Shown piece after piece: positions 12,136 to 49,700 of a stretch of DNA of 64,000 nt. The translations under genes were made by a program, and so were the position numbers. Under the pieces are notes generated by a model. That model had not been told where the DNA came from. It worked only from the letters and a program-made list of their open reading frames with translations, and searched no databases. The stretch comes from an uncultured Coriobacteriia bacterium. GTDB taxonomy: Bacteria > Actinomycetota > Coriobacteriia > Coriobacteriales > QAMH01. The DNA is taken from contig CABRZR010000008.1 of NCBI GenBank assembly GCA_902475535.1, positions 12,217 through 76,216 of the forward strand, written 5' to 3'. Every line of letters begins with the position of its first letter. Position 1 is the first letter of the stretch.

Positions 12136-12262
12136 TGTCATTTCGACCGAAGCATGGGGTACCTCCCTCGTCATTTCGAGTGGAGCGAAGCGGAGTCGAG
12201 AAATCTCCCGCATCGAGATCTCTCCATTCCGCGGCTTTGCAGCCGCTCCAGTCGAGATGACA
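12136..12262. repeat. foldback repeat, family FB (GTCATTTCGA...GAGAAATCTC units)
   Basis: It contains TGTCATTTCGACCGAAGC, GTCATTTCGAGTGGAGCGAAGCGGAGTCGAGAAATCTC and the inverted GAGATCTCTCCATTCCGCGGCTTTGCAGCCGCTCCAGTCGAGATGACA. Confidence 0.85.
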
Positions 12263-12296
12263 GGGGACACCGTGTTCCGGATACCTTGTGACGGAG

Positions 12297-13103
12297 TTAC
12301 ACGGTGACGCCGGCGAAGCGTTCGGCATTGCGCCAGAGCATGGCGTCGAACTCTTCGTCGGTGAAATCGAGGGCGCGGAAGGCCTCGTATTCGCTGATGG
12401 GACTCCACATCGGGTGGTCGCTGCCCCACATGACGCGGTCAACACCCCACATGCGTACGAGTTCTGCCGTGTGACGGTCGCCCATGAGCGGCTGCGAGCT
12501 TGAGGTATCGATGAAGAGGCTGTCGTATTTCCCCAGGTAATCGTAGCCTTGGTCATAGATTGACCAGCCTCCGAAGTGTGCCGCATCCACGACAAGGTTC
12601 GGGAACGCGTCAAGCATGCGCGCGAGTCTGCGCGGATGCGAGAAGTCGTGGCGATAGTCGCCGGTGTGGATGGTGATGGGCAATCGGCCGGCGATGATCT
12701 CGTAGAACTCCATGAGACGCGGGTCATCCGTATCGACCATCTGCGTGTCGGGGTGGATCTTGAAGCCGTGCAGGCCAAGCTCTATTGCGCGTTCGACCTC
12801 GGCTTCCTTGTCCTCGAAATCGGGATGCATGGTGCCGAAGCCGATGAACTCGGGATGCGCGTGCGCTTGCTCGGCGATGAAATCGTTGATGCTCGTCACG
12901 GCATGGGGCGTCGTGGCAACCGAGTGGACGATGAAGTGCGTGATGGGGGAGGTATCCGCGCAGGCAAGCAGCGCCTCGGGTGTACCGGGGCTGCAGGTGC
13001 CCCCGTCGAACATCTCGACACCGTAAAATGCGCCGACTGCTTCGACGGCTCTCGTTGCTATTTTCTCTGGATAGATATGCGCGTGTGCATCGATAACTGC
13101 CAT
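12297..13103 (-). CDS. metal-dependent amidohydrolase (Amidohydro_2-type TIM barrel)
   Basis: ATG at 13103 is preceded by AAGGAGAAACC. The product begins MAVIDAHAHIYPEKIA.., an HxH metal motif. The track start at 13211 is an upstream extension. Confidence 0.75.
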   Translation of the reverse strand: MAVIDAHAHIYPEKIATRAVEAVGAFYGVEMFDGGTCSPGTPEALLACADTSPITHFIVHSVATTPHAVTSINDFIAEQAHAHPEFIGFGTMHPDFEDKEAEVERAIELGLHGFKIHPDTQMVDTDDPRLMEFYEIIAGRLPITIHTGDYRHDFSHPRRLARMLDAFPNLVVDAAHFGGWSIYDQGYDYLGKYDSLFIDTSSSQPLMGDRHTAELVRMWGVDRVMWGSDHPMWSPISEYEAFRALDFTDEEFDAMLWRNAERFAGVTV

Positions 13104-13228
13104 GGTTTCTCCTTCAACATGCAGCATCCTACCCCAATCATGAAGTTTGGGGAAGATAAAAGGCGAAAAGTCGGGTAATGGACGTTCTGGACGAGTGGCT
13201 ATTCTAGACATGGCGACCAGAATAGGAA

Positions 13229-13318: not shown

Positions 13319-13327
13319 CGTGCCCTC

Positions 13328-14062: not shown

Positions 14063-14077
14063 TATGGTGTCGCTGGC

Positions 14078-15337: not shown

Positions 15338-15417
15338 GCTCGGCTCCTTCATCGGAAATCGCAGCCCTATGATACAGCGATTGCGGGATACGGATGAATG
15401 AGACAAGTGACGCCCAT

Positions 15418-15530
15418 TGTCATTTCGAGCGAAGCGAACGAAGTGAGCGGAGTCGAGAAATCCCGATCTTTGGCAGCGACGGGTGAGATTTCTCCACTCC
15501 GGCGCTTGCGCGCCTCCGGTCGAAATGACA
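15418..15530. repeat. foldback repeat, family FB (complete A unit + spacer + B unit)
   Basis: TGTCATTTCGAGCGAAGCGAACGAAGTGAGCGGAGTCGAGAAATC ... GAGATTTCTCCACTCCGGCGCTTGCGCGCCTCCGGTCGAAATGACA. The terminal inverted repeats are TGTCATTTCGA/TCGAAATGACA. Confidence 0.9.
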
Positions 15531-15539
15531 GGGGGCGGC

Positions 15540-17642
15540 CTACCTCAGCAGCTTGGTGAGCTTTCCGTTGGCGACGAGCGTGACCTTCTTGGTTGCGCGT
15601 GATATCGCGGTGTAGAGGCGGTGACGCGCGAGTGTCTCGTCGGGGTAGGAGCGATTGCCCGCATCAGGCACAATGACCTGGTCGAACTCGAGGCCCTTGG
15701 CAAGCTTGATGTCGAGCAGCAGCACGCCGTGTTCGGGCATGGTCTCCTTGCCGGCGCCCGTGACGATGGGCAAGTCTTCGAGCAGCTGCTCGAGCTTGGC
15801 CAGACGGCGTGCATCGGGGGCGATGATGGCGGCCAGGCACCTGGCTTCGAGCGCCTCCTCGACTGCCGTCTTGAGCTGCACCTCATAGTCGAGGTCATCG
15901 GCGCATTCGATGATGACCGGCTCGATGCCTGCCGGCTGGACAGACTCGACGCGCACGCGCTCCTCGTTATCGAGCAGGCTCGTGAACAGGGCCGTAATCT
16001 CCGGTGACGAACGGTAGCTCGTCATGAGCTCGCAGTTGTCGACCGAGCCGCATGCACGCGTGAAGACCTCGCGAATCTCGTCGAAGCTCGCCGTGCCTTC
16101 CCGGATGGCCTGGTTCTCGTCGCCGAGCATCATGAAATGCGCCTTGCCGAAGTAACGTGCCAGGCACATGAGCTGCGCGGCGCTATAGTCCTGGACCTCG
16201 TCGATCATAACGTAACGCGCGTGGCGCATGCCGCCACCGACGAGCGCGAGCTTGAGGTAGAGCCACTCGATGGCGCTCAGGTTTTCCGAGCCGGTCAGGC
16301 GCATGCCAATGGCGTCGAGACGCAGCCAGCGGCCCTCCGCGATCTCGTGTTCGACATCTGCATAGCGCCAGCGTAGGAAACGTTCTGTATAGCTCACGAG
16401 TTCGGCTTCGTCCATGTCGCCGATGTAAACGTTCTCGCCAAAGCACTCGATTTGCTCGGCATCGGACATGTCGCTGATCATGTCCTGGTATTTCTCGGAC
16501 TTGGCCAGACGCTTGATGCGCTGCTCAAGACGATCGAGGAGGTCATCGATGACGAGCGCGCTGCGATGCGAGCCGGTGGGGAGGTTCTTGAGCTTGCTCC
16601 ACGCTCCGTGCGCCTGAGCTGCCGTGATGACGGGCTCGCCTTCAATGCGGATGTCGGTAAAGTCGCCCTGCTTGAGCTTGAAGTCGGGGAGTTTCTCGTC
16701 AATGGCGCGCAGCGCGTCGGCGCTTACCTCACGCCCGAGGTCGCGGCTACCGAGACCGAGACCGCACATGAGCGATTCGAAGGTAATCGACGAAGGGTTG
16801 CTCTCGCCCATCTCGGGCAAGACGTTCTCGATATAGCGTTGGAACACCGGGTTGGGCGTGATGAGGAAGACGTCCTCGGGCTTGAGCGTGTCGCGCTGCC
16901 GGTAGAAGAGATAGGCAATGCGTTGCAGAAGTACCGAGGTCTTGCCAGAACCCGCGATGCCGCTGACGAGCAGCGCCGGGACATCCTCATGGCGGATGAC
17001 CTCGTTTTGCTCCTTCTGGATAGTTGCCGTAATGGCCGACAGGCGCGAGGAACGGTTCTGCGCGAGCGCTGCAAGCAGCATTTCGTCCTGGATGGCGACG
17101 GTGGTGTCAAAGAGGGCCTTGAGCTGGTCGCGCTCGATGTCGAACTGGCGGCGCAGCTTGAGTTCGCAGTCGATGGTGCGACCGTTGGCTTCGTAGCTTG
17201 TCTTGCCGTTGTCCTGGTTGTAGTAGACCTCGGCGATGGGACTGCGCCAATCGACGATGAAGTGACGGTAGTCGTCGTCGGTCATGCCGACGTTGCCGAT
17301 GTAGACGTCCTTGGGCTCGCTGCCAGGCTTGAACTGGAGCGTGACCTTGGCGAAGTAGGGCTGCTTGAGGAGGAGCTGCGCGCGATGCAGGCGCTCGGTC
17401 GTGACGTCGGCCGCGATGTTGTAGGTGTCGATGATGCGGTTGACGGCCTCGAGCTCGGCCATGGTCTCGACGTGGATGTCTGCGTCGAAGTCGAAGTTGA
17501 GCTCGTCGGTGATGAGGTCCTTCTCGGAAGCGACCTCGCTGAAGATGCTCGCGAGCTGCTCTCGCAGGCTGCGCTCGATGCTCTGGAGCTTCGCGTATGT
17601 CGTGCTCAGGTGCTCTTGTTCGGCTTCGAATGTCTTGTCCAT
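15540..17642 (-). CDS. helD: UvrD-like helicase IV / HelD-type RNA-polymerase-associated ATPase
   Basis: The 700-aa product has an N-terminal coiled segment (MDKTFEAEQEHLSTTYAKLQSIE..), a Walker A motif (GIAGSGKTSVLLQRIAYL) and a C-terminal UvrD_C segment (..LYTAISRATKKVTLV). Confidence 0.75.
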   Translation of the reverse strand: MDKTFEAEQEHLSTTYAKLQSIERSLREQLASIFSEVASEKDLITDELNFDFDADIHVETMAELEAVNRIIDTYNIAADVTTERLHRAQLLLKQPYFAKVTLQFKPGSEPKDVYIGNVGMTDDDYRHFIVDWRSPIAEVYYNQDNGKTSYEANGRTIDCELKLRRQFDIERDQLKALFDTTVAIQDEMLLAALAQNRSSRLSAITATIQKEQNEVIRHEDVPALLVSGIAGSGKTSVLLQRIAYLFYRQRDTLKPEDVFLITPNPVFQRYIENVLPEMGESNPSSITFESLMCGLGLGSRDLGREVSADALRAIDEKLPDFKLKQGDFTDIRIEGEPVITAAQAHGAWSKLKNLPTGSHRSALVIDDLLDRLEQRIKRLAKSEKYQDMISDMSDAEQIECFGENVYIGDMDEAELVSYTERFLRWRYADVEHEIAEGRWLRLDAIGMRLTGSENLSAIEWLYLKLALVGGGMRHARYVMIDEVQDYSAAQLMCLARYFGKAHFMMLGDENQAIREGTASFDEIREVFTRACGSVDNCELMTSYRSSPEITALFTSLLDNEERVRVESVQPAGIEPVIIECADDLDYEVQLKTAVEEALEARCLAAIIAPDARRLAKLEQLLEDLPIVTGAGKETMPEHGVLLLDIKLAKGLEFDQVIVPDAGNRSYPDETLARHRLYTAISRATKKVTLVANGKLTKLLR

Positions 17643-19976: not shown

Positions 19977-20105
19977 GGCACTCTCCGGTATTCGCGTGGG
20001 TGATGCGTCAAGGGGTCAGGCCCTTTGGCACGTTTGCGTGTATTGGTTGGTCATTGTAGCGGTAATGGGCGCGGCGTGCGCGGCAGATGGGCTATAGTTA
20101 ATCGC

Positions 20106-23400: not shown

Positions 23401-23420
23401 CCCCGTCGTTTCGGGCGCAG

Positions 23421-23511
23421 GAGATCTCTCCATTCCGCGGCCTTGCGGCCGCTCCGGTCGAGATGACAGGCATGTCATTTCGACCGGAGCGGAGCGAAGT
23501 CGAGAAATCTC
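23421..23511. repeat. foldback repeat, family FB (B unit then A unit)
   Basis: GAGATCTCTCCATTCCGCGGCCTTGCGGCCGCTCCGGTCGAGATGACA-GGCA-TGTCATTTCGACCGGAGCGGAGCGAAGTCGAGAAATCTC. Confidence 0.9.
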
Positions 23512-23889: not shown

Positions 23890-26484
23890 TCATCCATCGA
23901 GGACCTGCTGGGCGATACGAACGGAGGCTGCCGCGTCATCGGCGTAATAGTCTGCGCCGATGCGTTGCGCATAGTCCTCGGTGAGCACGGCACCGCCCAC
24001 CATGATGCGGGTTTGGGGCGACTGCTCGCGCAGCAGCGCGATGGTGCGCTCCATCGCGGGCAGTGTCGTGGTCATGAGAGCCGAAAGACCCACAAGAGGG
24101 GCGTTGGCATCGAGCGTCGCATCGACGATGGCTTGCGGAGCTGCATCACGACCGAGGTCGATGACCGTGTAACCGTAGTTCTCGAGCAGCATTTTGACGA
24201 TGTTCTTGCCGATATCGTGAATATCGCCCTCGACTGTAGCGAGGATGATTGGCAATGTATTGCGTTTTGCAGCGCCAGCCGAAGCGCTTGCTTCGCTGAG
24301 CACGTCGAAGGCCGATTTGGCGGCCTCGGCTGAGGCCATGAGCTGGGGAAGAAAGTATGTGCCCTCGTCATAACGCACCCCGACCTCGTCAAGGGCGGGT
24401 GCGAGGACGTCTCCTGCGATGGAAGCGACATCGCTGGTTGCGAGCATGGTGCGTGCGGCTTCGGCGGCGGCATCACGCTGACCGGTGAGAATCGCCTCGT
24501 GAAGGGTAGTAGCGCTGTCATTTCGACTGGAGTCGCCGTTAGGCGACGCAGTGGAGAAATCTTCTCCGTCGATGTCACCGGAATGCGAAAGGCGAGATTT
24601 CTCGACTTCGCTCGTTTCACTCGCTCCGCTCGAAATGACAGGTGGGGCGCTCGCTCCGCTCGAAATGACAGGTGGGGTGCCCGCTGCGTCCGCTTTGCTC
24701 GAAATGGCATGCTGCATCGCGTGCACGTATTCCAGGCAACCGGCATCCTGGCCGTTGATGATGCGGAAGGCCGCAACGGCCTCGCGGTAGCGCGGTTCGA
24801 GCGGGTTGATGATGGGCAGATCGAGCCCGCAGGCAAGCGCAGCCGTGAGGAAACTCGCGTTGAGGACGGGACGTGCGGGCAGTCCGAAGCTCACGTTGGA
24901 GATGCCGAGCACGGTGCGCACGCCGAGGCGCTCCTTGCAGAGTCGTACGGCTTCGAGGATCTCGGGGATTTCGGGCTGGTTGGTGGCTGCGGCCATGACG
25001 AGGCAATCGATTGCGATGTCCTCGAGCTGCAGACCAGCCGAAAGAGCGGCATTGATGATGCGCTCGGCAATGGCGAGGCGCCCCTCGGCAGACGGCGGGA
25101 TGCCGTCTTCGTCGAGCGTGAGGCCAACGATGGTCGCGCCGTAGCGTGCTGCAATGGGCAACACGGCGGCGAGGCTTTCGGCCTTGCCGTTGACTGAGTT
25201 GATGAGGGGACGTCCCGCATAGCCGCGGCAGGCAGCTTCGAGTGCGTGAGGGCTGGCGGAGTCGAGTTGCAGGGGCGCTGACACGGTAGCTTGCAGGCGC
25301 TCGCTAAGCTCACGCAGTGCGCGCGGCTCGTCAATGCCCGGCACCCCGACGTTGACGTCGAGTATGTCGGCCCCGGCCTCGATCTGCGCGACGGCTTCGG
25401 AGATGGCGAGGTCATAGGAACCGCTGGCAAGCGCCTCCTTGAGGCGCGGCTTTCCCGTGGGGTTGATACGCTCGCCGATGGTCGCGACCGTGGGTGCGCC
25501 TGGCACGAGTTCGATTAGCTCCTGGGCGCTTGTCACGACAAAGGAGGGCCGATAGTCGGAAACGCTGGCGTGCAACCAGTTGCCATCATCGATGAGCTGA
25601 CGCAAAGCGGCGATGTGCGCGGGCGTTGTGCCGCAACAACCGCCGACGATGTGAGCGCCGGCTTCCAGGATGGCACCCATGGCCTGCGCGAATCTTGCGG
25701 AATCGACATCGTAGACCGTAGAACCATCTTCGGTGATGCGCGGGAGCCCCGCATTGGGCTGCACCATGAGCGGGCAGCGGGCGTGTGGGGCCATCTGCGT
25801 GACGAGAGGCGTGATCTCGCTCGGGCCGAGCGAGCAGTTGATGCCAACGGCCGAGGCACCGAGTGCGGAGAGCGTGGCGGCGGCAACGGCGGGTGTCGTG
25901 CCCATGAAGGTGCGGCCATCCTCGCCGAAGGTCATCGTCACGAAGACCGGCAACGGCGTGTTGTCGAGGCAGGCGAGCAGCGCCGCCTTGGCTTCGAGCA
26001 GGTCGGCGAAGGTTTCGAGAAAGATGAGATCGCAGCCGGCTGCGCAGGCGGCGCGGGCTTGCTCGGCGAAGATATCGTAGGCCTCCTCGAAGCCGAGCTC
26101 CCCGAGCGGGGCAAGCAGCGACCCGGTAGGACCGATGTCACCGGCAACGAGCGGTGCTCCCGCATCACGTGCGATCTGGGCTGCGGCTGCGTAGAGCTCG
26201 TCGACGCTCGCGTCATGATTCGCGAGCTTGAGGCGGTTCGAGCTGAAGGTATTGGTGGCGATGCAATCGCTGCCCGCCTCGACATACCCGCGCTGCAAGG
26301 TGCATATGTCGCTTGCGTGCGTGAGGTTGAGGAGGTCCGGCACATCGTGGATTTGCGAGAGGCCCGCCTGCTGGATGAGGCTTCCCATGCCGCCATCGGC
26401 AAGCATGATCGCCTGACCGCACATGACCTGGTTGAGAAGCTCGGATGAAATCTTGGGCGTTCGCGGGGTTGCCACGTACATCAC
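23890..26484 (-). CDS. metH: cobalamin-dependent methionine synthase core (Hcy-binding + pterin-binding + B12-binding domains; no fused activation domain)
   Basis: The product has ADGGMGSLIQ.. (S-methyltransferase), ..INSVNGK.. (pterin binding) and EGDIHDIGKNIV (DxHxxG B12 motif). A ~64-codon repeat-derived insertion lies in the linker at 24516-24709. Confidence 0.85.
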   Translation of the reverse strand: MMYVATPRTPKISSELLNQVMCGQAIMLADGGMGSLIQQAGLSQIHDVPDLLNLTHASDICTLQRGYVEAGSDCIATNTFSSNRLKLANHDASVDELYAAAAQIARDAGAPLVAGDIGPTGSLLAPLGELGFEEAYDIFAEQARAACAAGCDLIFLETFADLLEAKAALLACLDNTPLPVFVTMTFGEDGRTFMGTTPAVAAATLSALGASAVGINCSLGPSEITPLVTQMAPHARCPLMVQPNAGLPRITEDGSTVYDVDSARFAQAMGAILEAGAHIVGGCCGTTPAHIAALRQLIDDGNWLHASVSDYRPSFVVTSAQELIELVPGAPTVATIGERINPTGKPRLKEALASGSYDLAISEAVAQIEAGADILDVNVGVPGIDEPRALRELSERLQATVSAPLQLDSASPHALEAACRGYAGRPLINSVNGKAESLAAVLPIAARYGATIVGLTLDEDGIPPSAEGRLAIAERIINAALSAGLQLEDIAIDCLVMAAATNQPEIPEILEAVRLCKERLGVRTVLGISNVSFGLPARPVLNASFLTAALACGLDLPIINPLEPRYREAVAAFRIINGQDAGCLEYVHAMQHAISSKADAAGTPPVISSGASAPPVISSGASETSEVEKSRLSHSGDIDGEDFSTASPNGDSSRNDSATTLHEAILTGQRDAAAEAARTMLATSDVASIAGDVLAPALDEVGVRYDEGTYFLPQLMASAEAAKSAFDVLSEASASAGAAKRNTLPIILATVEGDIHDIGKNIVKMLLENYGYTVIDLGRDAAPQAIVDATLDANAPLVGLSALMTTTLPAMERTIALLREQSPQTRIMVGGAVLTEDYAQRIGADYYADDAAASVRIAQQVLDG
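24516..24709. repeat. family FB composite inserted in-frame in metH
   Basis: TGTCATTTCGACTGGAGTCGCCGTTAGGCGACGCAGTGGAGAAATCT, then GAGATTTCTCGACTTCGCTCGTTTCACTCGCTCCGCTCGAAATGACA, then two further ..GCTCGAAATG(A/G)CA units. Confidence 0.85.
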
Positions 26485-29348: not shown

Positions 29349-30077
29349 ATGAAAAAACGCATCGCATATATGGCCATCGCCGTGCTCGTGGGCGCTTGTG
29401 CGCTTGCGGGCTGCACGTCGGGAGCCGAGACGTCCACCGTGTCATCGGCAACGGGTACCGCACCGGCGATGACCGGCAACAAGGCGGCGCAGGCAGCCGA
29501 CGTCGTCGAGGCGCAGCTCGAACGCCTGGATATCATGGAGGACATGCGCCCTGCGTTCGATCACGGCGAGAAGGGGCGGGAGTTTCAACGCTATGTCGTC
29601 TTGCATGACACCGAAAGCGAGGCCGATGCCGCGAGCATCGTCGAATACTGGGACCAGGCGGGCACGGGCGTGGCGGCGCACTTCATCGTCAACCGAGACG
29701 GCAGCATCGTGCAGTGCGTGCCGCTTGACCGCATCGCGCATCATGCCGGCTTCGGCGATACCGGTCACAACGAGCTCTACGGCGTTATGGACGAGTCGCG
29801 CGACGATAAGGTGGGGACGGTCCCCATTGGTGGCGATATGGCCGATTACGGGATGAACTCGTATTCGGTTGGCATCGAGATGGCGCATGTGGGCGGACAG
29901 GATTACCCCGAGGCGCAGCTCGAGGCCGTGGATGCGCTCATCGCCTACATCGATGGCTACTATGGCTTCGAGAGCCGCATCATCGACCACAAGGGCTGGC
30001 GCACGGGCAATTCGGACACGAGCCCGGAGTTTGCGGCATATCTGGCCAACTACCAGGCTAAGGGTACGCATTTGTAG
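29349..30077 (+). CDS. N-acetylmuramoyl-L-alanine amidase (Amidase_2) lipoprotein
   Basis: The product begins MKKRIAYMAIAVLVGACALAGCTSG (lipobox LAGC) and contains ..AAHFIVNRDGSIVQCVP..AHHAG..NSYSVGIEMAH. Confidence 0.8.
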   Translation: MKKRIAYMAIAVLVGACALAGCTSGAETSTVSSATGTAPAMTGNKAAQAADVVEAQLERLDIMEDMRPAFDHGEKGREFQRYVVLHDTESEADAASIVEYWDQAGTGVAAHFIVNRDGSIVQCVPLDRIAHHAGFGDTGHNELYGVMDESRDDKVGTVPIGGDMADYGMNSYSVGIEMAHVGGQDYPEAQLEAVDALIAYIDGYYGFESRIIDHKGWRTGNSDTSPEFAAYLANYQAKGTHL

Positions 30078-30094
30078 GGTGGCCTTCGCTGGTC

Positions 30095-31885
30095 TCATTT
30101 GCGAATGAGGCATTTGGGCCCGGAGCCGATGAGGTCGCTGCGCCCGGCCTTGAGAAGCGCTTCTTTCACAAGCTTGCGATTCTTGGGGTTGCGGTACTGG
30201 ATGAGCGCGCGTTGCATGGCCTTTTCGTGCGGCGTTTTTGCCACGTAGATAGGCTCCATCGTGCGCGGGTCAAGTCCCGTGTAGTACATGCAGGTCGAAA
30301 TCGTCGAGGGCGTGGGATAGAAATCCTGGACCTGCTCGGGGTTGTAGCCCATGTCGCGCACGAATTCGGCAAGCTCGACGGCATCGGCGAGCGTTGCACC
30401 GGGGTGCGATGACATAAGATAGGCAACCAGATACTGTTTGAGTCCGGCTTTCTTGGTTGCCCGCTTGAACGCGGCGGCGAAGCGCTTGAAAACGCTGATG
30501 GGCGGTTTGCCCATGGTCATGAGCACCGCATCCGATGCATGTTCGGGTGCGACGCGAAGCTGGCCGCTCACATGGTGCTCCACGAGCTCGCGCAGGAAGC
30601 TCGGGTCATCATCGAGCATCATGTAGTCGAAGCGCAACCCGCTGCGTATAAAGACCTTCTTGACATTGGGTAAGGCGCGAAGCTTGCGCAGCAGGGCGAG
30701 ATAATCCTCATGCGTGACGCGCAGGTTCTTGCATGGCTTTGGTGACAGGCAGCGCTTGCCCACGCAGGCACCGGTTTTGAGTTGCTTGTCGCAGGCGGGT
30801 ATGCGGAAGTTTGCCGTGGGGCCGCCGACGTCGTGAATGTAGCCCTTGAAGGCGGGGTCTTCGGTCATGAGTCGTGCCTCGTCGAGGATGGACTCATGGC
30901 TCCGGGCTTGGATAATGCGGCCTTGGTGGAAGTTGAGCGAGCAGAAGGAGCAATCGCCGAGACAGCCGCGATTGCTCGTGATCGAGAAGCGCACTTCGGC
31001 AAGGGCAGGGACGCCTGTCGTGTACGAGGGATGCACTTCACGGGCATAGGGCAGCGCGTAGATGGCATCCATCTCGGGCATGGAGAGCGGCTTTGACGGT
31101 GGGTTCTGCACGACGAAAACATTGTGCGGGTATTCCTCGGCAAGAATGTGCGCGGAGAAGGGATCGAGGTTTTCGTACTGCGTCGCGAAACTCGTTGCAT
31201 ATTTGCTCGGGTCCTGCTGCATCTCCTCGAAGCTTGGCAAAACGATGGCATCGTCGGGAAGGTGATCGAGCGAGCGCACTTTGTAGACGGTACCGTCAAT
31301 GAAACTCAGGTCATGTACCGAGAGGCCGCTGGCCAGGGCATCTGCTATCTCGATAATGGACCGCTCGCCCATGCCGTACGAGATGAGATCGGCCCCCGAA
31401 TCGAGCAGGATGGAGCGCTTGAGGCTATCCGACCAGTAATCGTAATGCGCGAGACGACGCAGACTCGCCTCGATACCGCCGAGGATGACGGGCGTCTTCT
31501 TATACGTGCGGCGAATGAGATTGCCGTAGACGACGCAGGCGCGATCGGGGCGCAGGCCAGCCGTGCCTCCAGGTGAGTATGCATCCGAATGGCGACGCTT
31601 CTTGGCGACTGTGTAGTGGTTGACCATCGAGTCCATGTTGCCCGCCGAGACGAGGAAGCCCAGCCGCGGCTCACCCAGAATGGTAACGGAGGATGGATCG
31701 CGCCAATCGGGCTGGGCGATAACGCCGACGCGATAGCCGTGGGATTCGAGCAGACGGGTGATGATTGCGGCCCCGAAGGAAGGATGGTCGACATAGGCGT
31801 CGCCGCTCACGTAGACGAAGTCAAGCTCATCCCAACCGCGCTCGCGCATATCGGCGCGGGTCATGGGTAAAAAGCCGCTTGTCAC
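30095..31885 (-). CDS. ygiQ: YgiQ-family (UPF0313) radical SAM protein
   Basis: The product reads MTSGFLPMTRADMRERGWDELDFVYVSGDAYVDHPSFGAAII..NRGCLGDCSFCSL. Confidence 0.85.
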   Translation of the reverse strand: MTSGFLPMTRADMRERGWDELDFVYVSGDAYVDHPSFGAAIITRLLESHGYRVGVIAQPDWRDPSSVTILGEPRLGFLVSAGNMDSMVNHYTVAKKRRHSDAYSPGGTAGLRPDRACVVYGNLIRRTYKKTPVILGGIEASLRRLAHYDYWSDSLKRSILLDSGADLISYGMGERSIIEIADALASGLSVHDLSFIDGTVYKVRSLDHLPDDAIVLPSFEEMQQDPSKYATSFATQYENLDPFSAHILAEEYPHNVFVVQNPPSKPLSMPEMDAIYALPYAREVHPSYTTGVPALAEVRFSITSNRGCLGDCSFCSLNFHQGRIIQARSHESILDEARLMTEDPAFKGYIHDVGGPTANFRIPACDKQLKTGACVGKRCLSPKPCKNLRVTHEDYLALLRKLRALPNVKKVFIRSGLRFDYMMLDDDPSFLRELVEHHVSGQLRVAPEHASDAVLMTMGKPPISVFKRFAAAFKRATKKAGLKQYLVAYLMSSHPGATLADAVELAEFVRDMGYNPEQVQDFYPTPSTISTCMYYTGLDPRTMEPIYVAKTPHEKAMQRALIQYRNPKNRKLVKEALLKAGRSDLIGSGPKCLIRK

Positions 31886-36878: not shown

Positions 36879-36976
36879 GAGATTTCTCGACTGCGCTCAC
36901 TGCGTTCGCTCCGCTCGAAATGACAGGAGTGGGAGCGAGAGATTTCTCGACTGCGCTCGCTCCGCTCGAAATGACA
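36879..36976. repeat. family FB, two tandem units
   Basis: GAGATTTCTCGACTGCGCTCACTGCGTTCGCTCCGCTCGAAATGACA and GAGATTTCTCGACTGCGCTCGCTCCGCTCGAAATGACA, immediately after the cstA stop. Confidence 0.9.
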
Positions 36977-36991: not shown

Positions 36992-37022
36992 GTGGGACAA
37001 ATGACCTGTCCATTTGTCCCAC
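36992..37022. repeat. palindromic element, family P2
   Basis: GTGGGACAAATGACCTGTCCATTTGTCCCAC, adjacent to the FB units downstream of cstA. Confidence 0.85.
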
Positions 37023-43090: not shown

Positions 43091-43511
43091 ACAGGGTTGT
43101 CCGAAAAATCAGGAATCGAGTTGTGATCGAATCATGAATCGGCTGTTACCCAAACTCTCCATTCACGATAAAAAATCTTTGCGGAAATCTGCTAGAAACA
43201 CTCAAAAAATTAGGATAGCTATCGCGGGATTCAGCCCCCAAAACAAAGGCCTTAGAAGGGCTTAGAATCGCTTGTAGATATACCGTGAAAGCAAGCATCG
43301 ATTTTGTATAGAAAAATGTATATATTGCCTGATAAATCGCTGATATCATCAATTTGCTAACCAGGAGATAACACAGCTAAATCAGGCGTTAGCGCGGCTA
43401 CTGAATCACCTTCGCTATGCGTCTTGGAAATTGGGCCGTGAGAACCACTCAGAAGCCACAGAAAGCGTCAAGCTATCAATTTGTATTTTTTATAGATTTG
43501 CGTATATCACT

Positions 43512-43590: not shown

Positions 43591-43845
43591 GTGGTTGAGT
43601 TGAGTTCAAAAGTCAAACAGGCGAACTTCCGTTTACCCCTCGAGTACATGTCGATGATTGATGATTTCGCGCATCGCGAAAACATCACCAAGGCGGCTGT
43701 CATCACCCGCGCCCTGGATTGCATGCAGGCATCGTACGACTCGGGTAACAACGGAATGCCCGTCACTGATTCCGGTTCGGGTATTTCCGAGCAGGAATTC
43801 AACGATCTTAAGAATCAGCTGAAGCAGGCGGAGGAGCGCGCGTAG
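43591..43845 (+). CDS. ribbon-helix-helix (CopG/Arc/ParG-like) DNA-binding domain protein, terminated by TAG 43843-43845
   Basis: The product reads ..KVKQANFRLPLEYMSMIDDFAHRENITKAAVITRALDCM.., a beta-strand/helix/helix RHH pattern. The start is GTG 43591 or TTG 43600 (after AGGTGG). Confidence 0.6.
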   Translation: MVELSSKVKQANFRLPLEYMSMIDDFAHRENITKAAVITRALDCMQASYDSGNNGMPVTDSGSGISEQEFNDLKNQLKQAEERA

Positions 43846-44508
43846 GCCGCAGAGCAGCGTGCGAACGACGCCGTTTTGGCTCGCGATGCCGCCGAGGCGA
43901 AGGCTCGCGAAGCGGTGGCGGATGCAAGCGTCGCAGCCCCCATCGTTGCCGCAGTCAACTCCGTTTCGGACGACGAGATCGAGCGCCTCAAGGCACTGGT
44001 TGCCAAGCAGGAGGCAAGCCTCGAAGAGAAGACAAAGGCACTTGCCGCCAAGGAAGCCGAGGTTGCAGCAAAGGAGGCGCAGATTGCCGAGCGCGACGCT
44101 CGCATCACGTCTCTGAGCGAGCAGCTCGGTGCGGCAAATGCCAAGGCTCAGCTGGCCGCCACCGCTCAGACCGTGAGCGTCGCACCCATAGATGGTGGTG
44201 GTTCACCCGGAGAAGATTCAACCCGTGCGCTGACCATGCTTAACATGCTTGGCGGTGTCATGGGTGCATTCCAGCAGCAGGTCGACGACGCTCGCCAGGT
44301 GGGTGAGCAAGAAGGCCGCTCGGCTGTTCAGAAAGAGCTCGAGGATATGATCAATAGGGCTCGCAACGATGGTTATCGTGACGCAATGACATATCTCGAT
44401 GACCGTGTCACAACCGCACGTGAGTCTGGGGCCAAGGAGGAAAGAGCACGTATCGCCAACATGGGATTCTTCGAACGCCGCCGTTACCTCAAGATTCACT
44501 TAGCCTAA
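43846..44508 (+). CDS. Ala/Glu-rich coiled-coil protein in the same frame as the RHH ORF, directly after its TAG (possible second half of one gene)
   Basis: The frame is identical to 43591 (43876-43591 = 285). The sequence across the stop reads AEERA*AAEQRANDAVLARDAAEAKAREAV..AKEAEVAAKEAQIAERDARITSLSEQL. No ATG occurs near the 5' end, and the track uses TTG 43876. Confidence 0.5.
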   Translation, partial: AAEQRANDAVLARDAAEAKAREAVADASVAAPIVAAVNSVSDDEIERLKALVAKQEASLEEKTKALAAKEAEVAAKEAQIAERDARITSLSEQLGAANAKAQLAATAQTVSVAPIDGGGSPGEDSTRALTMLNMLGGVMGAFQQQVDDARQVGEQEGRSAVQKELEDMINRARNDGYRDAMTYLDDRVTTARESGAKEERARIANMGFFERRRYLKIHLA

Positions 44509-44575: not shown

Positions 44576-44613
44576 CAGCGACTCCGGATCCACCTACCGG
44601 GGTCGCTGTTTTT
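44576..44613 (+). terminator. rho-independent terminator (CAGCGACTCCGG...CCGGGGTCGCTG + TTTTT)
   Basis: It has a stem of about 11 bp, a 9-nt loop and a T-run at 44609-44613, about 70 nt after the coiled-coil ORF stop. A second hairpin ATGCCTGC-N14-GCAGGCAT + TTTT follows at 44614-44647. Confidence 0.6.
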
Positions 44614-44695
44614 ATGCCTGCAAACGCTCAAGGCGGCAGGCATTTTTGCTGTCAAAATCCTGCGCTGCTCGGGTCGCCGTGGGTGCTCGGGGCAT

Positions 44696-45019
44696 GAGAT
44701 TTCTCCACTTCGGCGCTGCGCGCCTCCGGTCGAAATGACAAGGGGGCGGGCTGCGTCCCGTGCTCGAAATGACGGGGAAGCGGGTCCCGCTCGTGCTCGA
44801 AATGACAGGGGAATGGGCTGCGTCCCGTGCTCGAAATGACGGGGAAGCGGGCCCCGCCCGTGCTCGGAATGGCAGGGGAGCGAGTCCCGCCCGTGCTCGA
44901 AATGGCAGTGCGGCGGGATCATTTTGATTGCTTGCGAAACGCGGATTGATGGCGAAATGGAGGGGCGGTTTTTGTCATTTCGACCGAAGCGAGCGTAGCG
45001 AGCGGAGTGGAGAAATCTC
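44696..45019. repeat. family FB composite: B unit + five tandem 33-34-bp units + inverted A unit
   Basis: GAGATTTCTCCACTT..GGTCGAAATGACA spans 44696-44740. The tandem units span 44741-44773, 44774-44806, 44807-44840, 44841-44873 and 44874-44906, each ending GTGCTCG(A/G)AATG(A/G)C. TGTCATTTCGACCGAAGCGAGCGTAGCGAGCGGAGTGGAGAAATCTC spans 44973-45019. Confidence 0.9.
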
Positions 45020-46656
45020 TCACGCCGCGCATCCGAAAGGGTTCTCGAAGCGTTTGGGAACACCACTTTTTGGTTCGCGTCGGTGACTCGATACGATAAT
45101 TGACTGGTACCAGTGATAGCGAAACGAGACGTTCTGGGCGGAAGGAAAATGAGAGTCGAAACGGTGATAGTGATAGGTCGATTTTAGGGTTTGCGAGTGC
45201 CTGATTTTGCTACTCACGAGAGGGCTGGGAAGCTGATATTTCGATGAGAATGTCGGTCAGTTGAGGCGTGCGAATGGGGCCGTGGCTTCTGTATCGGGAG
45301 CCGATTTTGAATCTAGGATTATGATGCGACGCCGCCAAAATCAGCTCATTATTTGAGCGATTCATGATGGAGAGCTGAAGCAAAATTGGCGGCGCGGGAG
45401 AATCGTGGAAGTCTGCCGAGGCTCCCGCGATTTCGTCTCAGGTTCCGCGCCAGCAAGTTTATGAACCGATTTTATTGGAGCGGGGGTTCCGCGCCTTGGC
45501 GCGGAGATGCGCGCTAAATTGCCGCGCGATGCCGTGGTCGTTTTTTGGAGCGCGGCGAGGCATACGGAGGATGGATTAGGGCGTGTGGTTGGTTGGTGGT
45601 TTTCGGGGGTGTGTTGGTCGTTGACGCGTGGAGAATATGGCTGTTGGGCACCATTGTCTTAGGGGTGGCTGCTGAACCGAAATGACCAAGATACTTGAAG
45701 TGAATAGGGAGGGGTAACGCGAGGCGCTATCTTGGTCTGGTGATGAGGATCCAAGGGGATTGCGATAGGTCGGTTGGTGCGTCTGGAGAAGCCCGAATTG
45801 AGTTGAATCGCTATAACGAATTGCCTCAAATGAGGAGAGGGTTGGGCGATTTCAGCCGAATCGCTATATGCAGAACGCGGTTTGGGAATGCGTGATTGGA
45901 TTTTTGGGAACGTGTGGAGGGATGGATGGGTCGCGTAGGTGTCTCCTAGAGCTGTTTTTGGCTCTGCAGCGAACGGCTTGGCTTCCTTGCGCAGCGAGGA
46001 CGAAAAACGATGCGTCAGAATCGATTCTAAGGCGTTTTGCCCGTATGGCAGGTATCCGAATGTGCCAGAAGAACATAAAAGGGCTTAAAACGCCTTAAAA
46101 TGCGCCAAATGTCTCCCAGGCTTGATTTGGAAGCCTTGGATGAGAATTGAGCGGCGCGAAAGGGGTTTCGAGCCCAATCTGGACCCCGATTCTCCTTCAG
46201 GGGAATCCAAATCGGACCGAAATCACGAAAAAGGGCCTCGATGCATAGTAGCGTCAGAATTGTCAATCATTTTTTCGCAAAGAGAGACGAGCAACTCAGA
46301 GAAGATAAGAAAATCCGTGCGAATATATCTAGAAATAAGATAAAGAATTTGAATGTTTGGCTGGTGAGGGCGCGAAAAATGCGCAATTGGTTTCGTGAAG
46401 AACTTGCCAACCAAATGTGGAGGAATTGTGAAGACGAAAAATAGTTTTGAGCTTGGGTTTTGCTTGCAAATGGCTAGAAATGGCCAAAATTCAACCCTTG
46501 CTGCTACCAAAATGCCTTAGCAGTCTAATTTACGTGTTTATCCAGGAGTTCTATAGACACTCTATACAAATGTAGCGCAAAAGCTATGTAATGCTTGCAG
46601 GGTGGTAGAAGCTGCTAAACCCGCAGGTAGATGGCACAATTGCCAAAGTTTCTCGC

Positions 46657-46685
46657 TTGCAAGGCAAAACGCGATTTTGTACATT
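46657..46685 (+). promoter_or_regulatory. candidate sigma-70-type promoter of the giant gene (TTGCAA-17 nt-TACATT)
   Basis: The hexamers lie at 46657-46662 and 46680-46685 with a 17-nt spacer, 32 nt upstream of ATG 46718. Confidence 0.35.
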
Positions 46686-46717
46686 GCGCATGCCGGTGAG
46701 TGAGGAAAGTAATACGA

Positions 46718-49700
46718 ATGATCCAAAGCAACGAAAATATCTTTCGCGATGCACGTGCGTTACGCGCGCGTGCGCGCGTTATATATATGGTCGTTGCAGC
46801 GATCTTCCTCAGTCTCACCATTTCGGCAATTTCCGCCACGGTTTTCACCCCCGCCGCTTTTGCAGACGATACGCTCCTGGTTGCCCAAAGCGCCACGAGC
46901 GATGATGCTGTAAACGCGGGCGCGGATGATTCCGCCGGCACTCCTGTTGACCAGGCGATTCCTGGCGCGGAAGGTGGAGATTTCTCGACTCCGCTCACCG
47001 CGTTCGCTTCGCCCGAAATGGCAGGGGAGGGCGCTGTTGCCGAAAATGGCGCGGAAGACTTCTCCGAAGATGCTTCTGACCAGCAGATTTCTGGCGCGGA
47101 AGATCAGTCCGGGGAGCCGCTGAACGGCGAGGGCCAGCCTACCGAGAATTCGGCCGAGGAGACGGCCGACGAAGATCCCGCCGTCACGGAGAACGTCGAG
47201 AATCCCACCCCCGAAGAAACCACTACCGTTGAGGAGGAGACCACTCCCGACCAGGTCGACGTGCCTGGCGTCGAGGAGCCCGAGGAACCGAACGCCGGGG
47301 TCTATGGCCCGGTGCGTTATCTGGCCGCTGCATCTGCCCCGGTCATTGCGCCTGCTGCAGGCACCAATGCATTCTCGGACAACGCAAACATCACCTGGGA
47401 GTACAAGAATCATGTGCTGACGATCACCGCCGGTGGCAGTGACAAGCAGCTCACGACTTCCCTGACCGGATCGAACCTGCCCTGGCTTACCTCGACGACG
47501 AGCGCTGTCAGCCGTGCCGACATCCATAGTATTAAGTTCGTGGCCAATGGCTCGGGTGGCAAGGTCGCCCCGCTGGACCTGACGAGCTGGTTTGCTGATT
47601 ACACGGCACTCACCACCATCGACGTGACCAATCTGGACGTCTCCAAGGCCGTGAGCTTCGACAAGATGTTCCAGAACGCGAAGGTGCTCACCACCATTAC
47701 GGGTATGGAGACCTGGAAGACCGACAGCGGCATCTCGTTCCAGGACATGTTTGCCAACGTCGAGAAGCTCGAGACCCTCGACCTTTCGGGAGTCTATACT
47801 GCGACAGGTTCCGGCAGCAATGTTGCTGACGGTACCGAGAAGAATAGGCTCGACATGTTGGCCGGCATGAAGTCCTTGCGCACCATTACATTGCATCCTG
47901 ACACCGCGCTGACCGATACGGGCATCGAACGCATCTCCTCGCGCAATGACGACCTCGGTTACTGGATGGCCACGCGCGTCGTCCAGGGCGAGATCAACGT
48001 CTGGCAGGGCAAGCCCTCCGAGCTGATCCAGCGCTGGGGTACCAACGGTGCGGCGGACAACGGCCTCAAGGCGAACTTCACCCTCAACTTCTTCCCCGAG
48101 GGTTACTTCACTAGTAATAGTGCAATCAAGTGGTCCTACAACTGGAATCGCAAGACGCTCGAGATCGAGCTTGATCCGAGCATCGCTCATACGGACTTCG
48201 CCGTCACCGAGACCGCCAGCCAGCTGCCCTGGCTGCGTGCCGTTCCGAGCGACCTCATCAACATCATCACCTTCCACGAGACGATCGACGGCACTAATAC
48301 ATATAAGATGGTTGCACCCGCATCGATTGCGAACTGGTTTGCCGACTACGTCAACCTGAGCGTCTTCAGGGGTTCCGGCCTCGATGTCAGCAACGTCACG
48401 GACTTCAGCGGTCTGTTCAAGGGCTGCATCAACGCCGCGAACATCGACATGACGGGTTGGGTCATGGGCGCGTCGGCAAACATCTCCGAGATGCTCGGGG
48501 ACTGCCGCTCGCTCAAGACCATCACCGTCTCGGATACCACGCGCATTGCCGGTGCCGGCCTGCTCAACATCTCGTCGATGAACAAGGCCAACGGCGTCTG
48601 GGAGCGCTACGACGACAAGGGCAAGGTCAAGGATCCCTGGTTTGGCACGACCGACAACCTCGAGCGTCGTTACAACGGCACCATCCTGGGCGCTGCCCAC
48701 GGCGATGCCACCTATCGTTTCAACACCATCCTGCGTGGCGGTCGTTTTGACAACGACAACACCTGGTGGAAGTTCGACAACGTCAACAACATCCTTTCCA
48801 TCGGTGCCGACGATGATGAGGATGGCGAGACTCTGGGCAAGCTCATCAGCGAGACCGCCAGCGCCAACGGCACCCGTTACATGCCGTGGCTCGAGCAGGT
48901 CGATGGTCAGCCCATCGTCACGATACGCAACGTGGAGCTGATCAAGACCTATAACGGTGCCCAGCCTGCTGACATGTCCTATTGGTTCAAGGACTTCGTG
49001 AAGCTCTTCGACTTTGACGGTACCAGTCTGGACACGAGCCAGTGCGTTGGGTTCACGGGCCTGTTCATGAACGATGTCAATCTTGGTGGCATCAACAATG
49101 GCGTTCTCGACATCAGCTCCTTTGACATGAGCCACAGCATGAGCGCCAATCGCGCCGACATGTTCAAGGGTGTCAACAAGTTGCTTAATATCAAGCTGGG
49201 CCCCAAGGTGCAGCTCATCGGCTCCGGTCTGGACAAGCTCGACCTCCATGACCAGACGAGTGGTACCTGGGTGCGCAAGGGCTCCGATACCGACTACTGG
49301 ATCGGCACCTCCGCCAGCTTGCTGAATCGCTACGGCAACGCCGCTTCCGAGGGCGCCGCCCTGGGCGAGGCCGCACTCTACTTCTGGGATGTCACGTTGC
49401 TGCGCAACGTCTTCCAGTCCAATGGCAACATCTGGTGGGAGTATGACTCCGATGCCGCAATGCTGCGCATCGGTGCCACCAACCCGAGTGGCAACGTCAC
49501 CATCACCGAGCGCCCCGACCCCGTCAACGTGCAGAACGACCAGCCTTGGCTGCTCGTCATCGGCAAGGCCGCCGGTAGCGGCGAGCCCGCCCGTGCCCTG
49601 GGCCGCTCCTCGATTCGCTATATCGTCTTCGAGGACAAGCTCCACATGCTGTATCCGGCCGACTGGTTCAAGGACTACGTCAATCTCGAGAACCTGCGCT

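Follow-up and report, generated by a model that had tools for sequence, protein, structure and literature searches.

The window, by which we mean the whole 64-kb stretch of DNA analysed here, carries one family of short repeat units at eight loci, of which five are intergenic (four of these downstream of a stop codon) and two lie inside coding sequence (Table 1). A census allowing one mismatch returned 13 complete units of 37–47 nt, together with one degenerate complete unit (46977–47022), approximately eight head-only modules and one decayed unit (2438–2487). With at most one mismatch, GTCATTTCGA was found 26 times in the window against 4.85 expected, a count reached in none of 100 shuffles; GAGAAATCTC was found 17 times against 3.9 expected, and the whole unit, GTCATTTCGA-N15-45-GAGAAATCTC, gave eight exact matches against 0.00 expected. 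These counts confirm that the family is real, as chance predicts no complete unit in the window. The first-pass annotation had reported at least seven loci of one abundant family with two core variants, at 12136–12262, 15418–15530, 23421–23511, 24516–24709, 36879–36976, 44696–45019 and 46977–47023 with a fragment at 2438, mostly past stop codons but in part within coding sequence. All were recovered at those positions.

Table 1. Repeat units, their arrangements and the associated host features in the 64-kb window.
Feature	Coordinates	Strand	Remarks
Decayed B-type unit	2438..2487	-	Head GTGATTTGAG, GC mini-hairpin core, intact tail GAGAAATCTC; divergent intergenic region
Head-only module (GTCATTTCGACCGAAGC...)	12137..12169	+	Immediately 5′ of unit 12170..12207
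Complete A-type unit	12170..12207	+	36/37 identical to a unit flanking the GIY-YIG gene of a Kiritimatiellae MAG (L108)
Complete B-type unit	12215..12261	-	Head GTCATCTCGA, core GCGGCTGCAAAGCCGC
Inverted doublet	12170..12207 + 12215..12261		Between two convergent genes
Complete A-type unit	15419..15464	+	Tail GAGAAATCCC
Complete B-type unit	15485..15529	-	Core GGCGC-N4-GCGCC; partner decayed in related contig L133
Complete B-type unit	23421..23467	-	Follows Map stop codon; shared by window, L133 and L214 but lacking from L135 and L137
Complete A-type unit	23474..23511	+	Head-to-head with 23421..23467; absent in same-species contig L214
MetH-like methionine synthase (host gene, 864 aa)	23890..26484	-	Repeat block corresponds to aa ~592–656
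B-type unit in MetH-like ORF	24517..24563	+	Antisense to the gene; translated as DFSTASPNGDSSRND
Complete A-type unit in MetH-like ORF	24594..24639	-	Sense orientation; translated as VISSGASETSEVEKS
Two tandem head-only modules	24640..24708	-	30-nt period unit GTCATTTCGAGCGGAGCGAGCGCCCCACCT and degenerate GCCATTTCGA copy; in frame, MetH linker
Empty site	30077..30095	.	~17-bp intergenic gap between convergent amidase and radical-SAM genes
Complete A-type unit	36879..36924	-	After CstA stop codon
Complete A-type unit	36939..36975	-	Direct tandem with 36879..36924, period 51
Complete B-type unit	44696..44739	-	3′ end (- strand) of head-only array 44740..44906
Tandem array of five head-only modules	44740..44906	-	Period 33–34: GTCATTTCGAGCACG, small GCGGG/CCCGC hairpin, C-rich tail
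Complete unit, mixed A/B core	44974..45019	+	
Degenerate complete unit	46977..47022	-	Head GCCATTTCGG; in-frame translation DFSTPLTAFASPEMA in giant DUF285 surface protein

The consensus of the window unit is T-GTC-AT-TT-CGA...(variable core)...GAG-AA-AT-C-TC, which follows the general scheme (pyrimidine-rich flank)-T / GTC / AT-NN-C ... variable core ... G-N'N'-AT / C-TC. All 13 complete units begin with GTCAT, which gives the unit its orientation, and all end ...AAT-C or ...GAT-C, with a C directly after the palindrome. In 242 copies from other genomes the base before GTC, a position outside the search pattern, is T in 80% of cases and G in 1%. The A-type and B-type cores were found as previously described, including the GC mini-hairpin of the B-type core, but the description of B as the plain inverted partner of A has to be replaced: the two are core variants of a single oriented unit, and each occurs alone, in tandem or inverted. 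Core lengths of A-type units increase stepwise by about 9 nt, falling into classes of 26/27, 35–37, 43–45 and 51. Units are arranged as singles, inverted doublets, a direct tandem and head-only tandem arrays, and both orientations relative to the neighbouring genes occur.

Fold-back of the inverted pairs, another feature noted at first reading, is strong: the doublet at 15419–15529, folded as 15410–15540, reaches −39.5 kcal/mol (z −5.5), and B-type units and doublets form stable folds. Single A-type units fold no better than shuffled sequence (z 0 to +1.4), the corresponding value for the NTS hairpin introduced below being z −5.5. The stem of A-type units is nevertheless supported, by covariation and not by folding energy. 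Among 331 distinct units gathered without requiring complementarity, both NN pairs were Watson–Crick in 312, against 172 expected, across eight dinucleotide classes, and 82 of the 98 units with a head other than TT were complementary.

As well as occupying gene-end spacers, the repeats are translated within two proteins. The copies at 24517–24708 fall within the MetH-like ORF between the Pterin_bind (aa 337–559) and B12-binding_2 (aa 660–729) domains, and the copy at 46977–47022 falls within the giant DUF285 ORF, in an acidic N-terminal linker just past the signal peptide. In both proteins the resulting peptide strings derive from repeat DNA and are not conserved protein sequence. We propose that copies inside genes persist only where their length preserves the reading frame and the protein tolerates insertion into a linker.

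The repeats also vary between strains. We compared the window with same-species contigs (L214, L247 and L261), with the related contigs L133 and L135 and with contig L137. Approximately 31 kb could be aligned to the same-species contigs at 97–98% identity, and repeat modules made up six of the ten indels of at least 12 bp, so that most strain indel differences in the examined region are traceable to repeats. Within the MetH block, L214 and L247 have an extra 36-nt head module at 24517–24563, and a 30-nt copy-number difference at 24640–24708 separates the window from L214. Contig L261 has one of the two tandem units at 36879–36975, the 51-bp indel being bounded by GGGAGCG repeats, and one module fewer in the array at 44740–44906. 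The comparison of occupied and empty sites that had been suggested could be made at 30077–30095, where the window and L133 have no insert whereas L135, L214 and L247 have a 140–182-bp inverted doublet. This insert, the one case of its kind (n=1), is flanked by an imperfect direct repeat of approximately 6–10 bp (GGCCRC..T), of which the empty site has a single copy. Assemblies break at the repeats: L247 ends at one, and many of the Ssn-like proteins described below sat on very short contigs.

Although the first-pass annotation did not assign these units to a named family, they share head, stem and tail with the NTS of Neisseria and the Ssn-related motifs (SRMs) of which it is the prototype, short DNA hairpins that in other bacteria surround the gene for a small nuclease of single-stranded DNA, Ssn (Chenal et al., Nat Commun 2025, PMC11893778). 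Ssn is a single-domain GIY-YIG nuclease of about 100 aa that recognizes the DNA hairpin, not its RNA counterpart, on just one of the two strands, and cuts that single strand a few nucleotides 5′ of GTC (PMC11893778). In the NTS, CGTC-ATTCCCGCG-MAVG-CGGGAAT-C, the GTC before the palindrome controls cleavage and the C after it is critical for binding (PMC11893778). Ssn nucleases (CDD family cd10448), of which only four have been tested, are the first described site-specific single-strand DNA endonucleases. Most of their homologues are reported from Gram-negative bacteria (PMC11893778). The window unit, TGTC-ATTTCGA...TCGAGAAAT-C, has the same determinants, namely the GTC head, the AT..AT palindromic stem and the C that follows it, and this C is also kept in each stem class recovered beside Ssn-like genes.

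The kinship extends from the repeats to the gene. More than 15 phyla have units with these termini, and the cores reach 36/37 identity to those of the window. In 10 unrelated genomes or metagenome contigs, units of this type tightly flank a single-domain GIY-YIG gene of about 100 aa on both sides. Among 120 genome loci chosen by the unit pattern alone, two-sided flanking by TTTCGA-type units is seen in Mucilaginibacter (L036), a member of the Bacteroidetes (L090) and the Kiritimatiellae (L108), and it recurs in metagenome loci L215, L218, L228 and L271. The flanked proteins are 100–106 aa long and match PF01541 with E-values of 1e-16 to 1e-19; their nearest solved structures are UPF0213 proteins, at only E 3e-10. 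In the reverse direction, the genes P0148, P0136 and P0129, fetched solely by the 68–75% identity of their products to the L108 protein, lie within arrays of GTCAT-NN-CGAGC..TCGAG-N'N'-ATCTC units (loci L139–L159). A profile of the Ssn-like proteins led to 54 viral-contig loci, 35 with close homologues and 19 with distant GIY-YIG genes. A GTC-hairpin unit lies within 400 bp of 33 of the 35 close homologues, and on both sides of 25, with 3.5 units per kb near the gene against 0.23 per kb far from it, whereas only 3 of the 19 distant genes have a unit nearby. Several of the units flanking the homologues are canonical NTS, GTCATTCCCGCGAAGGCGGGAATCC.

Because homologues of the flanked protein are themselves flanked elsewhere by canonical NTS, we consider it likely that the window repeats are a subfamily of the SRMs, and that the copies are putative sites of an Ssn-type enzyme encoded elsewhere, or remnants of such sites. 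Our data are consistent with a model in which each unit is an oriented element that would form a hairpin once the DNA is single-stranded, to be recognized by an Ssn-type nuclease encoded elsewhere in this Eggerthellaceae genome, or left behind by one. Such units would pile up in short gene-end spacers as mosaics of singles, inverted doublets and head-only tandems, and would turn over quickly between strains, with doublets inserting whole and modules being duplicated or deleted. By analogy with the characterized system, Ssn may cleave these sites in the host organism and may thereby limit recombination of incoming single-stranded DNA.

The published SRM pattern, HGTCWYN(0-2)YYVSBRHN(0-5)WNVSBRGN(0-2)RNCYNB, matches none of the window units; its single match in the window (11097–11131, which holds no repeat unit) is at chance level, with 0.6 expected. 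The NTS passes it, but neither the minimal form of 26 nt nor the A unit of the window does. This pattern is a search heuristic drawn from 29 genomes and is no criterion of mechanism. As it misses the subfamily, SRM counts to date are probably too low, particularly in Bacteroidota, Clostridia and Actinomycetota, and a subfamily whose inner stem is different and whose core is long and modular would add candidate specificities to the Ssn/SRM catalogue.

A further step, which we offer only tentatively, is that GTCAT-TTCGAG-type units and the Ssn-like gene form a currently active module that moves between phyla, generates most of the structural differences between strains of this gut Eggerthellaceae species and delivers strain-variable in-frame peptides into an essential enzyme, MetH, and the giant surface protein. 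Near-identical units of 37–45 nt do occur in Coriobacteriia, Kiritimatiellae, Bacteroidota, Clostridia and candidate-phyla bacteria. Under such a module, the head-only tandem arrays might be scars left where single strands were repeatedly nicked 5′ of the GTC head and then mis-repaired; if so, Ssn activity in vivo could be read from the genome.

It is rather unlikely, though it deserves to be weighed, that the units are relics of an Ssn–SRM system whose nuclease was lost or never encoded, and that they change only by slippage and recombination with no dedicated partner. The 64-kb window has no GIY-YIG ORF, and none was found in three contigs of the same species (L214, L247 and L261), in two that probably belong to the same genome (L231 and L238) or in three Coriobacteriia genome loci (L024, L055 and L097); 19% of SRM-rich genomes are without an Ssn homologue (PMC11893778). 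In most cases strains differ by having gained or lost tandem modules with short direct repeats at their edges, a pattern expected of slippage, and the growth of A-type cores in steps of about 9 nt points the same way. However, the searched sequence that is from, or likely from, the host genome amounts to approximately 88 kb. Genomes of this type are so much larger (the share is about 3%) that absence of the nuclease from the genome does not follow. The appearance of a whole 140-bp inverted doublet in a formerly empty spacer of about 17–19 bp is beyond slippage alone, and the combination of intact heads and tails (eight exact full units) with variable cores suggests ongoing selection or recent spread.

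Transposon-type readings fare worse. The first-pass annotation likened the inverted doublets to MITEs. On such a reading they would be non-autonomous transposons with terminal inverted repeats TGTCATTTCGA/TCGAAATGACA, mobilized by a DDE transposase whose gene lies elsewhere, and would generate target-site duplications. Strong folding of the doublets and the imperfect direct repeat at both edges of the insert in the sole clean empty/filled comparison speak for this, but we judge it highly improbable: the supposed terminal repeat is the head of each oriented unit, and a transposase dependent on terminal inverted repeats leaves unexplained the units that are single, in direct tandem (36879–36975) or in head-only arrays (44740–44906 and 24640–24708). 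Spacers and cores of the doublets vary by locus with no fixed internal sequence, the candidate target-site duplication is a single imperfect case, and the gene tied to the units across genomes encodes a GIY-YIG nuclease and not a transposase. The window itself encodes no transposase or other mobilizing enzyme, in line with the first-pass statement that a cognate transposase is missing there.

REP elements carry a GTAG-type head. The window units have a GTC(A) head instead, yet in organization they resemble REP, BIME and REPIN elements closely, with short oriented hairpins whose 5′ head is conserved, fold-back inverted doublets and mosaics at gene ends, a parallel that Chenal et al. also note (PMC11893778). 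The SRM-ssn-SRM architecture seen elsewhere likewise recalls the single-copy RAYT gene, which has its own repeats on either side. Spread by a Y1 (HUH) transposase of the RAYT or IS200/IS605 TnpA type is nonetheless scarcely credible for the window units, as the enzyme differs in kind: each flanked gene recovered, in 10 of 10 cases, is GIY-YIG, Pfam scans of 30 window proteins found no Y1/HUH domain, and no RAYT was seen in the window or beside the units examined. A primary role in RNA, as transcript-end stabilizers, terminators or processed small RNAs, could account for the four of five intergenic loci just past stop codons, the long RNA hairpins expected from doublets and the covarying stem, but is equally hard to sustain given units in both orientations relative to neighbouring genes, unstable single units, no T-run (the canonical terminator that adjoins them at 23.5 kb is conserved separately), no Rfam match at gathering thresholds across the window or, at E≤1, on the largest cluster (44600–45100), and the binding of NTS as DNA, not RNA (PMC11893778).

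Set against known systems, the window units are most readily understood as SRMs of a distinct type. Like NTS/SRM repeats, they are oriented, have a GTC head and place a C directly behind the AT...AT palindromic stem; also shared are over-representation in the style of hundreds of copies, intergenic mosaic clustering, in the window also beside a surface-protein gene, and, in other genomes, the flanking of ~100-aa GIY-YIG genes on both sides. They differ in their inner stem (TTCGAGC/..TCGAGAA against TCCCGCG/CGCGGGA), in length (26 to 66 nt and mostly 35–66, with a long modular core, against 28 nt), in the weak closing stem and head-only tandem arrays, in the share within coding sequence (two of eight loci against 2% for NTS), and in their Gram-positive Coriobacteriia host, in which the cognate gene was unseen in the ~88 kb searched. 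The 20-bp palindromic core of the Neisseria dRS3/NIME repeats, ATTCCC-N8-GGGAAT, is the inner part of the NTS, and these repeats too bracket variable segments and cluster by surface-protein genes. Their stem sequence and host phylum are different, and the dRS3 definition leaves out the oriented head and tail that are both conserved in the window units. Lastly, the Rickettsia palindromic elements insert in frame into protein-coding genes and add peptide segments at tolerated positions, much as the repeats in the MetH and surface-protein linkers do here. Those elements are 100–150 bp long and lineage-specific, whereas units of the window type are 26–66 nt long, occur across phyla and are linked to Ssn-type genes.

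Each repeat unit in the window is an oriented element that opens with the head GTCATTTCGA and closes with the tail GAGAAATCTC. Both 10-mers, named in the first-pass annotation, are strongly enriched: the head, with at most one mismatch, occurs 26 times against 4.85 expected and the tail 17 times against 3.9, and joined as GTCATTTCGA-N15-45-GAGAAATCTC they give eight exact matches in the window and 0.00 in shuffles. All the loci listed in that annotation are present where it placed them, and, with one mismatch allowed, the census counts 13 complete units (37-47 nt), besides one degenerate complete copy, approximately eight head-only modules and one decayed copy. Units lie alone, in direct tandem, as inverted doublets or as head-only tandem arrays. 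Window GC is 59.7%, and housekeeping genes in the window include a his operon, thiamine genes, methionine aminopeptidase, a MetH-like synthase, a UvrD-like helicase and CstA. The closest named relatives of the MetH-like protein are from Parvibacter (66%) and Adlercreutzia (58%), which places the source among uncultured Eggerthellaceae (Coriobacteriia). A tRNA scan of the window found none, and an exact-protein look-up of the SDR protein adjoining locus 12136 returned no record.

Positions of repeat units and neighbouring features in the window
Feature	Position	Remark
Direct tandem units	36879-36975	period 51
Inverted doublet	12170-12261	
Inverted doublet	15419-15529	
Inverted doublet	23421-23511	
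Head-only tandem array	44740-44906	period 33-34
Head-only tandem array	24640-24708	period 30
Degenerate complete copy	46977-47022	in giant DUF285 ORF
Decayed copy	2438-2487	
Repeat block	24517-24708	in MetH-like ORF
Largest cluster	44.7-45.0 kb	
SRM-module indels	~30076, 24685, 24531, 36939, 44678, 44812	same-species alignment
GGGACAAATGACCTGTCCATTTGTCCC repeat	21268-21294, 21321-21347, 36994-37020	
BspA-type LRR_5 ORF	20025-22436	
9-mer AATGAGACA/TGTCTCATT	11194/11218, 13261/13278, 15397, 17716, 27233/27257, 27964	
AT-rich island	42000-43500	GC 0.29-0.38
Two ORFs after island	43591-44508	
Giant DUF285 ORF	46787-64000 (+)	runs past window end

Read in orientation, a unit consists of T-GTC-AT-TT-CGA, a variable core and GAG-AA-AT-C-TC. 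In A-type units the core is a low-complexity GAGCGRAGCG string, and in B-type units it carries a GC-rich mini-hairpin, for example GGCGCGCAAGCGCC. Core lengths across genomes cluster at 26/27, 35-37, 43-45 and 51 nt, which suggests growth by steps of about 9 nt. Folded as single-stranded DNA, B-type units are stabilized by the inner mini-hairpin, and the inverted doublets fold back on themselves as had been proposed (-39.5 kcal/mol, z -5.5 for a doublet). Single A-type units are not stabler than shuffled sequence (z 0 to +1.4), and because their hairpin is not significant, our structural claim is based on covariation. From all retrieved loci we collected 331 distinct units, using a search pattern blind to complementarity. 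In 312 of these, both NN pairs of the closing stem AT-NN-C/G-N'N'-AT are Watson-Crick, against 172 expected with independent arms, and the stem dinucleotides fall into eight classes (TT/AA, CT/AG, CC/GG, TC/GA, GT/AC, GC/GC, AT/AT and GA/TC). The closing stem is therefore real, despite the insignificant folding energy of single A-type units. A CRISPR-like reading of the 33-nt array was ruled out: it has no unique spacers, each period being a repeat head plus mini-hairpin.

A literature search with the exact unit termini returned primer matches only; a search with related sequences of other genomes led to Chenal et al. 2025. The Neisseria hairpin repeat NTS, CGTCATTCCCGCGMAVGCGGGAATCYRG, belongs to a wider class, the Ssn-related motifs (SRM), and motifs of this class flank the ssn gene, whose product is a single-domain GIY-YIG nuclease of 94 aa (PMC11893778). 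Ssn binds the hairpin in single-stranded DNA only, and on one strand only, and makes its cut upstream of the motif, at a distance of a few nucleotides; cleavage depends critically on the three nucleotides before the palindrome, and binding on the C just after it (PMC11893778). The window unit has exactly the same features, in the order GTC, AT...AT, C. The published degenerate SRM pattern matched no unit, and gave one chance-level match in the window, because the units differ at one 5′-arm position, have a different 3′ arm and carry a long core. The earlier view that this is not a recognised named family must accordingly be revised: the termini and the flanking of Ssn genes place the units among the SRM and not in an unknown class. 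The repeats are a previously uncharacterized subfamily of Ssn-related hairpin repeats in a Gram-positive gut lineage, to which they add a stem type that the published pattern does not find, insertion polymorphism between strains and copies translated in frame.

The unit termini extend far beyond this lineage. A breadth scan by unit pattern, with one genome per species, returned at least 120 loci from Clostridia, Bacteroidota, Verrucomicrobiota, Planctomycetota, Chloroflexota, Acidobacteriota, Patescibacteria, Omnitrophota, Cloacimonadota, Spirochaetota, Ignavibacteriota, Desulfobacterota, Alpha- and Gammaproteobacteria, Bifidobacterium and Coriobacteriia, and units were also present on 12 viral contigs. 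Among the matches listed, 120 genome loci for which the unit pattern was the sole criterion, a profile search found five GIY-YIG ORFs; the four scanned against Pfam are of 100-106 aa and match PF01541 (E 1e-16 to 1e-19). Units of the TTTCGA type lie closely on both sides of the GIY-YIG gene in three loci (L036, L090 and the Kiritimatiellae locus L108), and one unit of L108 is identical to window 12170-12207 at 36 of 37 positions. A metagenome scan added four more genes flanked on both sides (L215, L218, L228 and L271), and the units around the L218 gene match window 12170-12207 equally well (36/37).

The flanking of Ssn-type genes in other genomes is systematic, and it was recovered in reverse. 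Every gene chosen solely for the 68-75% identity of its product to the L108 protein lies within an array of GTCAT-NN-CGAGC...TCGAG-N'N'-ATCTC units, the stems of which carry compensatory changes. A profile built from these GIY-YIG proteins (A2) returned 54 viral-contig loci, comprising 35 close homologues and 19 distant GIY-YIG genes. A GTC-hairpin unit lies within 400 bp of the gene in 33 of the close homologues, on both sides in 25, as against 3 of the 19 distant genes with a unit nearby, and unit density in these loci is 3.5 per kb near the Ssn-like gene against 0.23 per kb elsewhere. Since several of the units flanking close homologues are the canonical NTS, GTCATTCCCGCGAAGGCGGGAATCC, units of the window's type flank the genes of homologues of the NTS-associated Ssn. 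Stem sequence varies with protein clade, examples being TTCCCGCG (NTS), TCCCCGCG, TGGCCGGG, TTGCCGGG, TTGCGAGG, TTCCAGCG and CCCCGGCC, and several stem classes can coexist around one Ssn-like gene (L309, many Bacteroidota loci; L280-L314); this variation is raw material for predicting Ssn specificities. In locus L190 (1568-1787) stop codons and a frameshift disrupt an Ssn-like gene, and the units immediately upstream of it are intact; here the enzyme has decayed and its repeats have been kept.

Within this lineage, no GIY-YIG ORF was found in the window, in the same-species contigs L214, L247 and L261, in L231 and L238 (same assembly, similar coverage) or in three Coriobacteriia genome loci; for this genome, or what is likely this genome, the search covered about 88 kb. 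The metagenome scan with the lineage-typical head pattern returned the same three same-species contigs and no ssn. The Ssn-like gene of L271 was rejected as belonging to this lineage, its neighbouring genes not being Eggerthellaceae-like, and the other four Ssn-like genes of that scan were set aside solely on lower GC content. That the units are orphan relics, persisting with no enzyme, is the rival that keeps most weight, at a low but appreciable probability.

Units turn over rapidly between strains. We compared same-species syntenic contigs (L214, L247 and L261; 97-98% nucleotide identity) and syntenic contigs of related strains (L133, L135 and L137; MetH 86-93% identical). In approximately 31 kb of same-species alignment, SRM modules account for 6 of the 10 indels of at least 12 bp. 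The convergent amidase/radical-SAM spacer (~17 bp, 30077-30095) is empty in the window and L133, and filled by a 140-bp inverted doublet in L135 and by a 182-bp version in L214 and L247, which additionally duplicates a 36-nt segment of host flank, head and 5′ arm. The Map-MetH spacer holds both an A and a B unit in the window; in L214 the A unit is missing and the head of the B unit is duplicated, and the B unit is absent from L135 and L137. Older copies decay: the L133 counterpart of unit 15485-15529 is degenerate but still recognizable. A 186-bp insertion in L261 (5627-5781; window ~40175) is not an SRM but a different duplication, a partial copy of neighbouring sequence (TAGCCGCAGGTAGTTGACGCAGA...) that includes the TGTCTCATT motif.

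The amidase/radical-SAM insert is edged by an imperfect direct repeat, GGCCRC..T, present as a single copy at the empty site, as a DDE-type MITE would leave; however, this single candidate target duplication, from one insertion, is too little to favour a transposase-like mechanism, and we consider such an origin improbable. Mobilization by a REP/RAYT or IS200/IS605-type system has a slighter chance still. A primarily RNA-level role is equally doubtful, as Rfam gave no match in the whole window or in a permissive scan of the largest cluster.

We favour recognition by a nuclease. When replication, repair or DNA uptake leaves a unit single-stranded, an Ssn-type enzyme of the host would recognize its top strand and place a nick 5′ of GTC; a doublet would present a site on both strands. 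For head-only modules, which always span upstream flank, head and 5′ arm, the simplest reading is that they are products of slippage or mis-repair at the hairpin base or nick site.

As first proposed, copies also lie inside coding sequence, and they persist in frame in linkers. The block in the MetH-like ORF follows Pterin_bind (aa 337-559), precedes the B12-binding cap (aa 660-729) and is translated as ...PPVISSGAS APPVISSGAS ETSEVEKSR...DFSTASPNGDSSRND. Close MetH homologues (86-97% identity) vary precisely in module number, with lengths of 804 to 889 aa, and as the DNA differences are of 30 and 36 nt the reading frame is kept. Modules are lacking in P0021, P0022 and P0024 (76% identity) and present in P0031 and P0034 (about 75%). 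In L139 (3001-6170; ENA assembly ERZ15185949, GC 0.66), an Ssn-like gene bracketed by SRM arrays lies directly upstream of metH, probably a coincidence with respect to the copies in the window metH linker. The degenerate copy in the giant DUF285 ORF is translated as DFSTPLTAFASPEMA, in an acidic linker after the signal peptide.

The window holds other repeats. A second, unrelated palindromic repeat, GGGACAAATGACCTGTCCATTTGTCCC, has three copies against 0 expected; a pair is in frame within a BspA-type LRR_5 ORF (...DWDKWTGHLSHLL...) and is missing from L214 (an indel of roughly 80 bp), and the third directly follows the SRM tandem at 36.9 kb. Nine copies of a 9-mer, AATGAGACA (or TGTCTCATT on the other strand), stand against 0.44 expected, mostly as intergenic inverted pairs 15-25 bp apart, and a 40-bp indel containing it distinguishes strains at ~27231; an operator site is one possible reading, a third small palindromic repeat another. 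The AT-rich island lies in a genome of 60% GC. After it come an 84-aa ORF, ribbon-helix-helix-like by eye, and a 210-aa alanine- and glutamate-rich ORF, coiled-coil-like by eye, neither with a Pfam match; island and ORFs together may be a mobile-element remnant.

The giant protein exceeds 5700 aa and carries many DUF285 repeats with a common 81-nt spacing, and the largest SRM cluster lies upstream of its ORF, an arrangement reminiscent of Neisseria, where NTS copies cluster near genes for surface proteins. In their translation inside genes, the copies resemble the Rickettsia palindromic elements. By contrast with N. meningitidis, where 2% of NTS copies lie inside genes (PMC11893778), in-frame copies occur here in two genes of a single window.
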